Positions 6,976-9,705 of a stretch of 40,933 nt of DNA are shown here, one piece after another. The DNA lies in IMG/VR virus record IMGVR_UViG_3300028804_000025, positions 1 through 40,933 of that record. One strand, 5' to 3'. The number at the start of each line of letters is the position of its first letter. Position 1 is the first letter of the stretch. The notes below the pieces were generated by a model, which saw only the letters and a list, made by a program, of their open reading frames with translations, searched no databases and was not told the DNA's origin. The stretch comes from a virus. Both the position numbers and the translations under genes were made by a program.

Positions 6976-7084
6976 GGTTAAGCCCCCTCTCCATTGCGGC
7001 GACGATCTTGCTGAAACTGAGTTTTGAGCGCATCCCACGGCGCTTCATTCGGCCATCGCTTGCGGGTGATCCAAATGTTAGGTT

Positions 7085-7762
7085 TCACAACAGCCCCTCC
7101 TGCACGCATTCGCGCGGGGGTTCGGGCGGTAGTAGCGTGCCCTGCGCCTGGGCGCGACTGATGCGCTCGCAGGCGATGTCGAAATACTTGCGCTCGCGCT
7201 CGATGCCGGTGAACGCCTTGCCAAGCTGCGCGCACGCTACGCCAGTTGTCCCGCTGCCCATGAACGGGTTTAGCACCGTCTGCGCCTTGTCGGCAAAGTC
7301 CAAGCACCACGCCATCACCTGCACAGGCTTCTGTGTAGGGTGTACCGCGCCATCCTGCGCAATAGCCGCCCGGTTCAGCGTCATGGAGCGCAGCGCCTTG
7401 TCCAGCGTGCTGTACGCCAGTTCGCAGTCGCTCTGGCTGATCCGCTGCCCCTTGTCCCACACCAGCCACCCCATGCTTGGCCTCAGGTGCTGCGGGTAGT
7501 AGTTGGCGCCCCAAATAATCAGGTTCGCGGCCTTCTCGTGCATCAACCCGAACAGCCACGCGGGCGGTGCGTCAGCGTCCCAGCCCATGAACTCATAGCC
7601 CTTGTGCCCGCCGTGGCTGCTGGTGCTCGGTGGCTTGCCGTCGCGGCCAATCCCATAGGGCGGGTCCGTCAGCAGCAAGTCGTGCACGGGCAGCAGCGGC
7701 AGCACCTCGCGGCAGTCTCCGTGCCACAGTTCCGCGTTCCCGATCACTACTTTCTCAGCCAC
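7085..7762 (-). CDS. DNA N6-adenine/N4-cytosine methyltransferase, beta class (225 aa, GTG start)
   Basis: DPPY (LLLTDPPYGIG) precedes NPFMGSGTTG. AAGGAG lies 6 nt upstream of GTG 7762. Confidence 0.85.
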   Translation of the reverse strand: MAEKVVIGNAELWHGDCREVLPLLPVHDLLLTDPPYGIGRDGKPPSTSSHGGHKGYEFMGWDADAPPAWLFGLMHEKAANLIIWGANYYPQHLRPSMGWLVWDKGQRISQSDCELAYSTLDKALRSMTLNRAAIAQDGAVHPTQKPVQVMAWCLDFADKAQTVLNPFMGSGTTGVACAQLGKAFTGIERERKYFDIACERISRAQAQGTLLPPEPPRECVQEGLL

Positions 7763-7820
7763 TTCAACTCCTTCACGCTTCGGACACAGTGAAACCTAAC
7801 TAGTCGCTCAAGCGGAGCGC

Positions 7821-8054
7821 CTACGGCGCCCGCTTAGCTCGAATGTTGTGCGTCAAAATCCGCCATGCAGCCGCCACCACTCCTGGAACTTGCCCATTGC
7901 CAAGGGCTTTAAGTCTGTCCACCCTGTTGGCCACCCCATGAGCCACTCGACCCAAGGCGGGTTCAGTTGCCCATGCGGCATGTGTCGCCCGTCTGCTTTT
8001 TCTTCGCGGGCTACCGCAAAGCTCAAAGAGTCCTGCTTCGCTACTCCGTCCCAT
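7821..8054 (-). CDS. DNA (cytosine-5)-methyltransferase, C-terminal part (same frame; ATG immediately follows the TAA)
   Basis: EPALGRVAHGVANRVDRLKALGNGQVP carries the motif X GN..VP. The frame is continuous with 8594. Confidence 0.7.
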   Translation of the reverse strand: MGRSSEAGLFELCGSPRRKSRRATHAAWATEPALGRVAHGVANRVDRLKALGNGQVPGVVAAAWRILTHNIRAKRAP

Positions 8055-8590
8055 TTAATTGCTGTCTCCATCGTGCAACTCGCATCGCGAGGGCTGTGTG
8101 TTGGTGTTGGCCAAAATCCAGATTCGTTCGCGCTTGTGGTTTGCGCCAATGGCATTCGCTCCCAGCACTCCCCATTCCGCATCGAACCCCATCGCGGCCA
8201 AGTCTCCAAGCACGGTTCCGAGTCCGCGAAGAGTGAGCATTGGGGAGTTTTCCACGAGCACGAAACGGGGTCGTACTTCGCCAATAATCCTTGCCATTTC
8301 CCGCCATAGGCCGGAGCGCTCGCCGGCAAGTCCTGCGCCATTTCCGGCAATCGAAATGTCCTGGCATGGGAAGCCTCCAGAAACCACGTCAACAATTCCG
8401 CGCCAAGGTCTTCCATCAAAGGTCTGCACGTCATCCCACACGGGGAACGGCGAAAGAATTCCATCGTTCTGTCGCTGGCACAGAACAGCAATGGCGTAGG
8501 GCTGCCACTCAACGGCGCACACGGTGCGCCAGCCGAGCAATTTACCGCCGAGTATTCCTCCACCAGCGCCTGCGAAAAGTGCCAACTCAT
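7853..8590 (-). CDS. 245-codon ORF in a second frame overprinting the C5-methyltransferase gene (status uncertain)
   Basis: ATG 8590 lies 8 nt after the same GGAGG. There is no stop for 245 codons. It contains the WPRWGSMRNG, WPTPT and NPPWVEWLMGWPTGWTDL strings. Confidence 0.35.
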   Translation of the reverse strand: MSWHFSQALVEEYSAVNCSAGAPCAPLSGSPTPLLFCASDRTMEFFRRSPCGMTCRPLMEDLGAELLTWFLEASHARTFRLPEMAQDLPASAPAYGGKWQGLLAKYDPVSCSWKTPQCSLFADSEPCLETWPRWGSMRNGECWERMPLAQTTSANESGFWPTPTHSPRDASCTMETAIKWDGVAKQDSLSFAVAREEKADGRHMPHGQLNPPWVEWLMGWPTGWTDLKPLAMGKFQEWWRLHGGF

Positions 8591-8594
8591 TCAT
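8055..8594 (-). CDS. DNA (cytosine-5)-methyltransferase, N-terminal part (motifs I-VIII), ending at in-frame TAA 8057-8055
   Basis: LFAGAGGG (I), GGFPCQDIS (IV), ENSPML (VI), RERIWILA (VIII). GGAGG at 8603-8599. Confidence 0.85.
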   Translation of the reverse strand: MNELALFAGAGGGILGGKLLGWRTVCAVEWQPYAIAVLCQRQNDGILSPFPVWDDVQTFDGRPWRGIVDVVSGGFPCQDISIAGNGAGLAGERSGLWREMARIIGEVRPRFVLVENSPMLTLRGLGTVLGDLAAMGFDAEWGVLGANAIGANHKRERIWILANTNTQPSRCELHDGDSN

Positions 8595-8631
8595 TCTTCC
8601 TCCGTATCACCATTTGACGCACAATGCGTTA

Positions 8632-8660
8632 GCCGCCACCAGCATCGGCCAGTGGCGGGC
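8632..8660 (-). other. GC-rich bulged intergenic hairpin H0
   Basis: GCCGCCAC-N12-GTGGCGG(G)C, between the Acb2-like gene and the methyltransferase gene. Confidence 0.5.
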
Positions 8661-8667
8661 CATAAAC

Positions 8668-8892
8668 TTAAAACGTGGTCGGTTGTGCAACGCCACGGAT
8701 TGCCCACATGAAGCCCTGTTGCAGGTTTGTCTTGCCAAGTGCAACTGCGCGCTTGTCCGTGCTTTCGTTCGCCATCAGCTTGTCGATGTAGGCACCGCAC
8801 TGTTCAGCCAGTGCCTTGCCTTCGTTCATCAGGTCGATTTCCTCTTGAGAGAGGTCGCGGTAGCCTTTAATCTTCTCGTGCTGGTCTTTCAT
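8668..8892 (-). CDS. Acb2-like protein, candidate cyclic-oligonucleotide sponge (74 aa)
   Basis: KGYRDLSQEEIDLMNEGKALAE...DKRAVALGKTNLQQGFMWAIRGVAQPTTF. The size, the Tyr11/Lys26 positions and the C-terminal T.LQQG.MW..R...P..F resemble the Acb2/Vs.4 family (memory only). Confidence 0.55.
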   Translation of the reverse strand: MKDQHEKIKGYRDLSQEEIDLMNEGKALAEQCGAYIDKLMANESTDKRAVALGKTNLQQGFMWAIRGVAQPTTF

Positions 8893-8948
8893 GGTGGTCC
8901 TTTCATGTTGTGCCGCGTTTTCAGCGGGTCGCGGCTAACCCGTCATTC

Positions 8949-8977
8949 CAGCCGACCGCCGCGAGCGGCGTCGGCTG
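8949..8977 (-). other. GC-rich bulged intergenic hairpin H1
   Basis: CAGCCGAC(C)GCCGC-GA-GCGGCGTCGGCTG, directly after the stop at 8981. Confidence 0.5.
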
Positions 8978-8980
8978 AAT

Positions 8981-9223
8981 TCATGCGTTATGCGTCAATT
9001 CCCGCTGAATGCGCTCACGCAGTTCGTGGGGGATTGTCAGATATTGCTCAACATCCCACGCCTTCAGGTCGGCCAGCAGGTCGCGCAGCCGTTCGTTCTC
9101 TCGGTGCAATTCGAGTATGTCGGCCTTGGCGTCGGCAAATGCGAAGGTTCGTGCTACATCGCTTTGTTCGGTCGCCATCGCTTCCGGCTGGCATCCACTC
9201 CATTGCTCAATCGTTCGATTCAT
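8981..9223 (-). CDS. hypothetical coiled-coil protein (80 aa)
   Basis: ATG 9223 is preceded by GGAGG (9233-9237). The upstream extension to 9307 has no RBS. Confidence 0.5.
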   Translation of the reverse strand: MNRTIEQWSGCQPEAMATEQSDVARTFAFADAKADILELHRENERLRDLLADLKAWDVEQYLTIPHELRERIQRELTHNA

Positions 9224-9319
9224 TTGTTCCAGCCTCCATCTTCTGTGTTTCCAGCAAGCGCCGGGCTTGCTCACCTTGTTTTTGCAGCCAATCCACGAGC
9301 AACGCATAACACGTCAGTC

Positions 9320-9350
9320 AACCGGACGTGCCGCAAGCGGCCCGCCGGTT
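9320..9350 (-). other. GC-rich intergenic hairpin H2
   Basis: AACCGG..GCCGC-AA-GCGGC..CCGGTT, after the stop at 9360. Confidence 0.45.
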
Positions 9351-9359
9351 ACTTCGGCG

Positions 9360-9659
9360 TTATGCCTTGCAATACGCCGGCCGCTCAGACGGGCCTTTCC
9401 CTGCCTCCGCAATCACCTGCGGCGTCCACTCAAACTCTGGCCTTGCCATCACCGGCGTCTCGTCTGTGATGCGCAGGCGTGCGATGTCAAACCACTGCGA
9501 TTCACGCAGTTTTCCGTCTGCGTCCGCGCCTGGATTCACCACCGCTTGGATGCAGCCGTACAGGTCAAACCCGACCGTCGCCACCACTCCCTTGAAACCA
9601 GTTACGCGGTCTTCTACCCGCATACCGAGAAAGTCCAAATGCTTTTTCAGGTTCACCAT
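9360..9659 (-). CDS. hypothetical protein (99 aa)
   Basis: ATG 9659 is preceded by AGGAAA. The composition is protein-like (VTGFKGVV..GC.QA.V.P....G...ESQWFD). Confidence 0.6.
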   Translation of the reverse strand: MVNLKKHLDFLGMRVEDRVTGFKGVVATVGFDLYGCIQAVVNPGADADGKLRESQWFDIARLRITDETPVMARPEFEWTPQVIAEAGKGPSERPAYCKA

Positions 9660-9705
9660 TTCTGTTTCCTTTCGTTGTAGTTACGCCAGGCATAACCCGG
9701 CAGTC

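Follow-up and report, generated by a model that had tools for sequence, protein, structure and literature searches.

M.EcoHK31I from Escherichia coli HK31 (Lee, Kam & Shaw 1995) is a natural heterodimeric C5-cytosine methyltransferase for which both chains are required. Its alpha chain carries motifs I-VIII and X, while motif IX lies on the beta chain, which is read from the alpha gene in a different frame. Removing N-terminal parts of beta, in the region overlapping alpha, weakens the association of the chains step by step (PMC2836561, PMC3404938). The target recognition domain (TRD) is there predicted to lie in alpha (PMC2836561). Here, we analysed a phage locus in IMG/VR virus record IMGVR_UViG_3300028804_000025 (positions 1 to 40,933; this whole stretch of 40,933 nucleotides is called the window), in which a C5-methyltransferase gene is overlapped over its length by a second open reading frame (ORF) on the same, minus strand. 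Similar to M.EcoHK31I, the second frame (frame B, 8590-7853) lies within the methyltransferase frame (frame A, 8594-7821) in phase +1, an arrangement conserved across the family, and motifs I-VIII and X fall in frame A with an equivalent of motif IX in frame B. The likeness is one of layout as the papers describe it. We propose, with a probability of about 0.75, that the locus encodes one C5-methyltransferase as separate polypeptides from two overlapping frames of the same strand.

In the proposed enzyme, the frame-A product alpha would provide the large catalytic domain, which binds S-adenosylmethionine (AdoMet) and holds motifs I-VIII, together with the motif-X helix; in relatives with an intact frame A the two would be joined by an arbitrary, unstructured linker. 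The frame-B product beta would have a start of its own, an ATG that lies 4 nt beyond that of alpha and follows the same Shine-Dalgarno (SD) sequence; it would run through 160 codons dictated by frame A and end in a small DNA-recognition domain composed of WPTPT-type TRD modules and motif IX. By analogy with M.EcoHK31I, alpha and beta would associate into the active enzyme, and the shadow N-terminus of beta may aid this association. In the clade of the window, the enzyme probably consists of three pieces, namely alpha-N of 179 aa, alpha-C of 77 aa produced by reinitiation at a TAA-ATG, and beta of 245 aa. M.EcoHK31I differs in several respects. Its beta is an internal ORF of 176 aa, whereas the window beta is co-extensive with alpha, having a twin start 4 nt on that shares the SD. 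In addition, the window gene is an orphan phage gene beside an amino-methyltransferase gene and does not belong to a restriction-modification system, and its alpha is additionally cut by the TAA-ATG.

M.AquI is a second natural two-subunit C5-methyltransferase, split in the variable region with motifs I-VIII in alpha and motifs IX-X in beta (PMC2836561, PMC3404938). In engineered split forms of M.HhaI, M.BspRI, M.BsuRI and M.SssI, the large- and small-domain parts fold and assemble as separate chains (PMC3404938, PMC5944983). Those splits are artificial and use separate genes, whereas the split in the window is natural, conserved and placed in overlapping frames. Unlike in M.AquI, motif X in the window stays in the frame of motifs I-VIII, apart from motif IX; it is two prophage relatives (L110 and L162, see below) that resemble M.AquI, in that motif X shares its frame with the TRD and motif IX. 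The M.AquI ORFs overlap only marginally and not over their whole length. Genes lying wholly inside another gene, in a different frame of the same strand and with both expressed, are known from lambda (Rz/Rz1) and phiX174 (A/B and D/E). In these cases the embedded protein is distinct and often of de novo origin, whereas the second frame of the window would encode an ancestral portion of the enzyme itself, with an overlap of ~245 codons that covers the entire gene. The open-access literature, with REBASE outside the scope, yielded only the M.EcoHK31I papers and no description of a phage family with this two-frame architecture. Judged by its layout, the family is probably a two-frame split C5-methyltransferase of the M.EcoHK31I kind, evidently very common in phages and unrecognised by current annotation.

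Dual coding and selection in the two frames

Frame A of the window opens at the ATG 8594-8592 and encodes an N-terminal ORF of 179 aa plus TAA (alpha-N, 8055-8594, minus strand, as are all elements of this gene) with the large catalytic domain. The large-domain motifs of C5-methyltransferases, I (FxGxG), IV (PCQ), VI (ENV) and VIII (RxR), are all found in it, as LFAGAGGG (8579-8556), GGFPCQDIS (8378-8352), ENSP (8252-8241) and RERIWILA (8132-8109), the last followed by ~17 codons of non-conserved linker. Beyond the TAA at 8057-8055, the same frame continues as a C-terminal ORF of 77 aa plus TAG (alpha-C, 7821-8054; TAG at 7823-7821), which carries RVDRLKALGNGQVP and consists of a junk-like linker followed by motif X, LKALGNGQVPGVVAAAWRIL, with GNGQVP at 7901-7884. 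Motif X is thus separated from motifs I-VIII by the TAA in the window, while in most relatives it is contiguous with them, and no small domain (TRD plus motif IX) lies between motifs VIII and X on the frame-A polypeptide. Frame B, +1 relative to frame A, encodes 245 aa plus the TGA 7855-7853 (beta, 7853-8590), with the strings WPRWGSMRNG, WPTPT and NPPWVEWLMGWPTGWTDL. The coordinates and motif strings that the first-pass annotation had given for both frames proved accurate throughout.

Separate profile and protein searches with the three products, which that annotation had suggested, identified the 179-aa product as a C5-methyltransferase. Frame A matched PF00145 (E 1.9e-30, profile positions 4-166), phrog_363 (E 1e-55), M.HhaI among the PDB sequences (E 3e-10) and TIGR00675 (E 2e-22, under that model's cutoff). 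The 77-aa alpha-C matched phrog_32758 (E 1e-15) and the 245-aa product matched phrog_1008 (E 1e-21), with no Pfam or NCBIfam family found for frame B. A search with the 245-aa product returned 6,142 clusters, many of them full length at 40-50% identity and nearly all unnamed.

To follow the frames across relatives, 163 loci were gathered via frame B from three encoding contigs, 80 viral contigs and 80 genome contigs, the last belonging to Pseudomonas, Acinetobacter, Citrobacter, Pantoea, Burkholderiales, Verrucomicrobiota, Planctomycetota and other groups. In ~150 of the 163 loci, no stop interrupts either frame B (230-320 codons) or frame A (phase -1) anywhere in the overlap, while the third frame holds 10-27 stops. 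Among loci ascertained through frame A only, frame B is open from the +4 ATG in 71 of 75. Synonymous-codon shuffles of 126 non-redundant loci served as the null. Given the frame-A protein, 5.2 stops are expected in frame B and 0.95 are observed, which is its terminator; given the frame-B protein, 8.6 are expected in frame A against 0.5 observed. Frame C behaves as the null predicts, with 15 stops observed and 12-14 expected. For the window itself, the frame-A protein and codon usage predict ~5 stops in frame B, where only its own terminator occurs, and frame C has 11. Openness also extends to the parts of each frame where selection acts on the other frame. The frame-A linker is stop-free in 118 of 123 loci (2.5 stops expected; 6.2 in frame C), junk-like linkers of up to ~150 residues staying open, and the N-terminal part of frame B has no internal stop against ~2.4 expected. 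The shuffle result repeats in subfamilies of 47-60% GC, with P from 0.02 to <0.0005, including those of Paenibacillus phage Bloom (47% GC), phage C72C1, Salmonella phage S9-5 and mycobacteriophage SG4. The earlier claim that the openness of the second frame is unlikely by chance is thereby borne out, and the proposed check of homologous phage loci finds the second frame open in nearly all of them. Two loci (L073 and L134) have a single stop each within the large domain. Longer frame-A matches were considered as natural fusions of A and B and rejected, being alpha proteins with long junk linkers.

Selection was located in a back-translated frame-B alignment of 127 loci, using the variability by codon phase (entropy). 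In frame-B codons 1-160 the frame-A wobble position is by far the most variable, as in ordinary frame-A coding, and the amino-acid entropy is 0.1-1.4 bits in frame A and 1.2-2.2 in frame B. The frame-A wobble variability dips locally within this part, for example at WPRWGSMRNG. By its pattern of variation, this part of frame B shadows frame A: it is kept open, yet its protein sequence is not conserved. Codons 161-230 show the reverse, with the highest variability at the frame-B wobble position and stronger conservation in frame B than in frame A, a difference that holds from Proteobacteria phages to mycobacteriophages. The segment selected in frame B takes in the WPTPT modules and LNPxWVEWLMGWPxGWT. 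The clearest frame-B coding is at PPWVEWLMGWPTGWTDLKPL, with entropies of 0.49/0.53/0.92 at positions B1/B2/B3, while the frame-A segment between motifs VIII and X is unconserved (amino-acid entropy 2.5-3.5 bits). Codons 231-240 (frame A GNGQVPGVVA) return to frame-A coding, with amino-acid entropies of 0.74 for A and 1.78 for B and an entropy of 1.32 at A3. The conservation of the 245-aa product thus exceeds what the methyltransferase frame explains at codons 161-230 and does not at codons 1-160.

The start of frame B is under selection of its own. The twin-start module ATG-A-ATG-AGT-T (8584-8594) contains the frame-A start at 8594-8592 and the frame-B start at 8590-8588; a candidate SD, GGAGG (8599-8603), is common to both, 4 nt 5' of the frame-A ATG and 8 nt 5' of the frame-B ATG. 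The TGA that closes frame B upstream is formed by part of the frame-A ATG and the following A. Across the family the context [A/G/T]TG-A-ATG-AG[T/C] is nearly invariant, and an SD-like motif lies 5' of the twin starts in 85 of 126 relatives. Where codon 2 of frame A encodes Asn, it is AAT in 71/71 cases of the frame-A-ascertained set and in 123/123 cases of the other set, and never AAC, whereas Asn elsewhere in the gene is encoded by AAC in 61-68% of cases (Fisher P = 5e-24 and 8e-48); therefore, the frame-B ATG is preserved. The four cases with a codon other than Asn have CGT, which gives a GTG start in frame B. A constraint on synonymous sites of the methyltransferase frame, which had been proposed as a check on dual coding, is thus present at codon 2. 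The silent-site fixation, the shared SD and the frame open from that very ATG argue that beta is read from its own start codon.

Could frame B be a non-functional shadow ORF created by GC content or codon bias, its database homologues being gene-calling errors? The N-terminal 160 codons do behave in that way, with the second codon position the most variable and a predicted structure of very low confidence (pLDDT, the predicted local distance difference test, <50), and gene callers choose the frame inconsistently. However, frame C of the same genes has its 10-27 stops, the shuffle nulls reject chance at 47-60% GC, codons 161-230 evolve as frame-B coding, the indel-rich middle is made of frame-B modules (see below), and the frame-B ATG is under silent-site selection. 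We consider this explanation to have almost no chance of being right. The first-pass annotation had suggested genuine dual coding on the same strand, and this stands: both frames are open in ~95% of relatives, each shows amino-acid selection in its own segment, and the frame-B start is fixed. On these sequence comparisons, dual coding is real and family-wide.

The frame-B module as the probable small domain

The frame-A product of an intact relative was predicted by AlphaFold with a pLDDT of 84-97 for residues 1-165, <50 for residues 169-237 and ~90 for residues 240-256, which form the motif-X helix. A Foldseek search with this model found M.HaeIII (E 3e-14) and M.HhaI over the large domain only, ~170-190 of 325 residues. 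Alpha is thus predicted to fold as the large domain and the motif-X helix, with a disordered linker between them. Frame B modelled alone gave a mean pLDDT of 54 and a pTM (predicted template modelling score) of 0.23, with residues 1-100 below 50 and the C-terminal third at 58-75.

The content of the selected part of frame B was recognised through a single-frame relative, gp71 of Mycobacterium phage IrishSherpFalk (MK016496; L169 196-1371), which is a C5-methyltransferase. In one frame, gp71 has motifs I-VIII, three LLPTPxxxDGxGG repeats and then RLNPAFPEWMMGWPTGWVTQVPGISRNDQLRIIGNGVVPQQ, the block LNPAFPEWMMGWPTGW being followed by IIGNGVVPQQ. The modules of the window stand in the same order, motifs I-VIII, PTP repeats, motif IX and motif X (GNGVVPQ in gp71). 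Unlike gp71, where one frame gives one chain and motifs IX and X are ~10 residues apart, the window encodes motifs IX and X in two frames of a single run of nucleotides. A hypothetical A-B-A hybrid of the window is collinear with gp71, with 34% identity over motifs I-VIII (E 4e-20) and 47% identity over the IX-X block (E 6e-9) in BLASTP, whereas pure frame A matches at motif X only (E 0.002). By hhalign, the frame-B family profile aligned with the gp71 block at 96% probability (E 5e-9); the block corresponds to the frame-B motif IX equivalent LNPPWVEWLMGWPTGW. The gp71 string LNPxFxEWMMGWPxGW fits LTPRECARLQGFPDxF, which we take to be the consensus of motif IX. In the window, the motif IX equivalent is LNPPWVEWLMGWPTGWTD at 7913-7966, overlapping the frame-A string PALGRVAHGVANRVDR. 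Here, where frame A shows poor conservation, 12 of 17 frame-B residues match those of mycobacteriophage SG4. De novo overprinting, which implies the absence of a single-frame homologue elsewhere, does not fit this locus: the selected part of frame B has a homologue in the motif IX region of gp71. Paenibacillus phages were considered as further single-frame relatives and rejected, as translation shows two frames and the one-piece tblastn match is a spurious extension.

The indel-rich middle of the overlap consists of repeated [WFL]PTPxAxDxKG modules, readable in frame B only. Products of frame B contain 1.2 [WFL]PTP strings on average, against 0 in frame A and 0.02 in frame C, and the number of strings tracks the frame-B length (r = 0.63). 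In the window, the first TRD-like module is WPTPT at 8099-8113, which overlaps the end of the frame-A motif VIII (WILANTN). Taken together, frame B carries motif IX and TRD-like modules that alpha lacks and appears, from these alignments, to be the small-domain part of the same enzyme. Its strings had earlier been associated with phage methylase-associated proteins; the gp71 alignments and the PTP modules confined to frame B point instead to the missing part of the methyltransferase itself.

Two relatives bear on the origin of the modules. The +1 frame of gp71 reads SWKMWPD..SETWPKTGYMSGG..LLPTPETGMSPNGHGRRGG before a stop, one TRD-like unit directly after motif VIII, and the main frame of gp71 is junk-like for ~38 residues at this unit. 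This hints either that the frames were re-fused in gp71 or that the PTP modules arose as the +1 reading of motif VIII. P0193, a 342-aa frame-A homologue, has in its linker a second copy of the motif VIII string, GAPHKRDRIWIV.TDS; here, the frame-B WPTPT module was evidently duplicated along with the overlapping frame-A motif.

An alternative to two polypeptides is a single hybrid chain made by programmed frameshifting, read in frame A, moved by +1 near RIWI/WPTPT (~8113) into frame B, and returned by -1 at C-TTA-AAG (~7918-7912) to frame A. Such shifts would recreate the canonical single chain and bypass the TAA, which lies in the part left unread. This product agrees exactly with the A-B-A mosaic of selection and is collinear with the single-frame gp71, and in E. 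coli A-AAG is known to promote -1 slippage in the A site. However, no conserved slippery heptamer was found at the first junction, where third positions vary freely and neither a hungry codon nor a stop is present, and at the second junction only TTA-AAG was found, a string that the two protein sequences dictate in any case. The openness of both frames continues well past the junctions, and a hybrid chain leaves the stop-free unused parts of both frames unexplained, as it does the silent-site fixation of the frame-B ATG. Two successive shifts would also be very inefficient, and the M.EcoHK31I precedent has two polypeptides. The frame-A linker provides a further point. In the prophages of Paraburkholderia caffeinilytica (L110, gene from ~2974) and P. 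adhaesiva (L162, from ~3001), motif X (RIEALGNGQVPR) follows the TRD and motif IX in frame B, and the frame-A linker holds 6 and 9 stops, respectively. Because the linker fills with stops only in these two, frame A of the main family appears to be kept open to reach motif X by ordinary translation; frameshifting does not explain why stops accumulate only where motif X has moved to frame B. We therefore regard a frameshifted hybrid as very unlikely and retain the reading as two polypeptides.

The in-frame TAA and its clade

The TAA of the window lies in a putative stop-restart element (8052-8069) consisting of GGAG (8069-8066), an 8-nt spacer, TAA (8057-8055) and ATG (8054-8052), located in the non-conserved linker and read in frame B as METAIKW. 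The same TAA is present at the same codon in all seven 245-codon relatives, which come from different samples and share 62-87% frame-B identity, and in one metagenome-assembled genome (MAG). Its 20-nt context ATGGAGACnnCnnTTAAATGGG is invariant in the seven relatives, with the frame-B reading METa[I/L]KW. Frame A is intact in the next outgroup, L175 (60% identity), and single linker stops arose independently in L094 and L119. One might suppose that the TAA is a sequencing or assembly error, or is read through, leaving alpha a normal 257-aa protein, and most relatives outside the clade do have an uninterrupted frame A. However, the same stop in an invariant context in seven contigs from different samples and in a MAG, together with the non-leaky context of a TAA followed by A, leaves this explanation hardly tenable. 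The TAA is neither a read error nor recent, because it is shared in invariant context across the clade, and the sequencing problem that had been considered at this site is thereby rejected.

A nonsense mutation that killed the methyltransferase of this clade, with frame B kept for a function of its own in DNA binding or regulation, independent of methylation, deserves more weight. Frame A is cut in all eight clade members while frame B is intact, one member (L002) has a second frame-A stop, and gene callers picked frame B in the clade contigs. The substitution pattern within the clade speaks against it. At codons 2-160 the differences by phase are.13/.07/.32, with 1027 A-silent and 273 B-silent changes, which is frame-A coding and would not persist in a pseudogene at 13-38% divergence. 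Codons 161-228 show frame-B coding (123 A-silent vs 296 B-silent). Codons 229-246, 3' of the stop, again keep the frame-A pattern, with differences of.090/.016/.143, 50 A-silent and 22 B-silent changes, and amino-acid differences of.07 in A against.16 in B. Moreover, the stop falls in the linker, the one frame-A segment that is unconstrained anywhere in the family. Because frame A is under purifying selection on both sides of the TAA, a nonsense pseudogene, another possibility raised in the first-pass annotation, is unlikely.

The remaining suggestion, a two-piece methyltransferase that would be made by termination-reinitiation at TAAATG, is the best reading left of frame A in this clade. Enzymes of this class require motif X to bind their cofactor, and alpha-N is clearly maintained. 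On the simplest reading, to which we give roughly even odds, reinitiation at ATG 8054 would yield the 77-aa peptide with motif X as a separate product, as the arrangement of stop, start and SD-like GGAG suggests.

Several points weigh against the proposed two-polypeptide enzyme and its three-piece form. Against Pfam, hypothetical A-B-A hybrids of three loci did not outscore pure frame A, the match ending at about profile position 180, and the match of the window hybrid to PDB sequences likewise stopped short of the frame-B segment. The small-domain assignment rests on gp71 because these generic profiles do not reach the frame-B segment; the placing of motif IX and the TRD in frame B thus draws on one single-frame relative and a consensus that we take from general knowledge. 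The AlphaFold model of frame B is too poor to serve for a comparison with known small domains. Unlike what is reported for M.EcoHK31I, the TRD does not appear to lie in alpha; the whole small domain appears to be in beta, with a disordered linker in its place in alpha. The model does not account for beta being read through 160 shadow codons instead of from an internal start. As to the three-piece form, the selection on motif X 3' of the TAA is measured on only 15 variable columns, and the spacer from GGAG to ATG 8054 is 11 nt, longer than optimal. The second stop of L002 (3001-3738), at codon 45 of frame A (QND*ILSPF, GGA to TGA), falls within the catalytic domain; this contig, at 7x coverage, may hold a dead copy or a read error. 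Residual doubt attaches to the two-polypeptide model because the small-domain assignment is indirect and expression and activity are inferred.

Surroundings, annotation and significance

Immediately downstream on the same strand lies an amino-methyltransferase gene with a DPPY motif (7085-7762, start GTG 7762; phrog_67, E 7.5e-40). Between this gene and the methyltransferase gene, a stable hairpin without a T-tract (7810-7835, minus strand; minimum free energy -23.3 kcal/mol, z = -3.0) places the frame-A TAG at its loop; the terminator scan did not call it, and the promoter and terminator scans gave nothing informative. A 74-aa ORF just upstream (8668-8892, minus strand) matches phrog_717 and phrog_29522, both of unknown function (E 1e-20). 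The gene 5' of the methyltransferase differs among relatives, being an HTH_31 protein, an SSB/ERF recombination module or an adenine methylase; in Salmonella phage S9-5, an adenine methylase adjoins the two-frame Dcm gene, but upstream. The window also encodes a tail fibre, an endolysin and a tail-chaperone, and a megablast of positions 7000-9500 against GenBank phages gave no match. Further ORFs of 100-260 codons on both strands at ~7300-9700 overlap annotated-looking genes, such as one of 193 aa (6978-7559, minus strand) within the amino-methyltransferase gene and one of 261 aa antisense at 8524-9309; these are possibly an effect of GC content.

GenBank phage records label the two-frame locus inconsistently. 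The same Achromobacter prophage gene is listed twice, as "DNA cytosine methyltransferase" in frame A (P0121) and as "hypothetical protein" in frame B (P0072). The UniRef name of P0072, from Achromobacter spanius, is 'Type I-E CRISPR-associated prot...', which looks like a propagated mis-annotation. In Paenibacillus phage Bloom (L168 477-1532 and 679-1383) and ~45 related P. larvae phages, both ORFs are annotated 'DNA cytosine methyltransferase', and frame B starts internally, just 5' of motif IV. Their overlap passes without comment in the genome paper (PMC6070908).

Some relatives depart from the common layout. P0008 (399 aa), a close relative of the window frame B, begins as frame B, has an insert of ~150 residues in the motif IX block (WVEKLMGWADNWTSLQP...) and ends in the frame-A motif X sequence PRVAHGVAHRVDRLKALGNGQVPGVVAAAW; because of this C-terminus, the insert joins frame B to frame A. 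In Mycobacterium phage Llama (gp74/gp75, L166 705-1464) and also in Seabastian, OfUltron and Jinglebell, the methyltransferase differs from SG4 gp64 by a 1-nt indel and so falls into two annotated 'DNA methylase' genes, each in its own frame, either a separate frameshift lesion or a variant on top of the two-frame layout. In L137 (3001-3900), an indel shifts the block of TRD and motif IX to the third frame and motif X to frame B, probably as an assembly error or a pseudogene in a MAG.

Read at its widest, the evidence might describe a widespread, unrecognised class of phage C5-methyltransferases whose domains always lie in two fully superimposed frames with twin starts 4 nt apart, made as two polypeptides and, in the window clade, as three via TAA-ATG, the PTP modules possibly derived from the +1 reading of motif VIII and spread by duplication. 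This extended proposal is tentative, and we rate it somewhat short of an even chance. If the PTP modules did arise in that way, the overlap would be among the longest and most ancient conserved same-strand overlaps in prokaryotic viruses. The family offers hundreds of independent replicates of a same-strand overlap of ~250 codons with cleanly separable selection, a data set for the study of sequence sharing, and the window clade is a testable case of termination-reinitiation yielding a separate motif-X peptide. The family would also supply naturally evolved split C5-methyltransferases, which are sought as scaffolds for targeted methylation tools. Should the two-polypeptide model hold, the annotation of thousands of phage and prophage "Dcm" genes is wrong, with one frame called and almost never both, and attempts to predict the methylation specificity of a phage from just its frame A would fail should the recognition modules lie in frame B. 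M.EcoHK31I, a single curiosity of 1995, would then become a general design principle.

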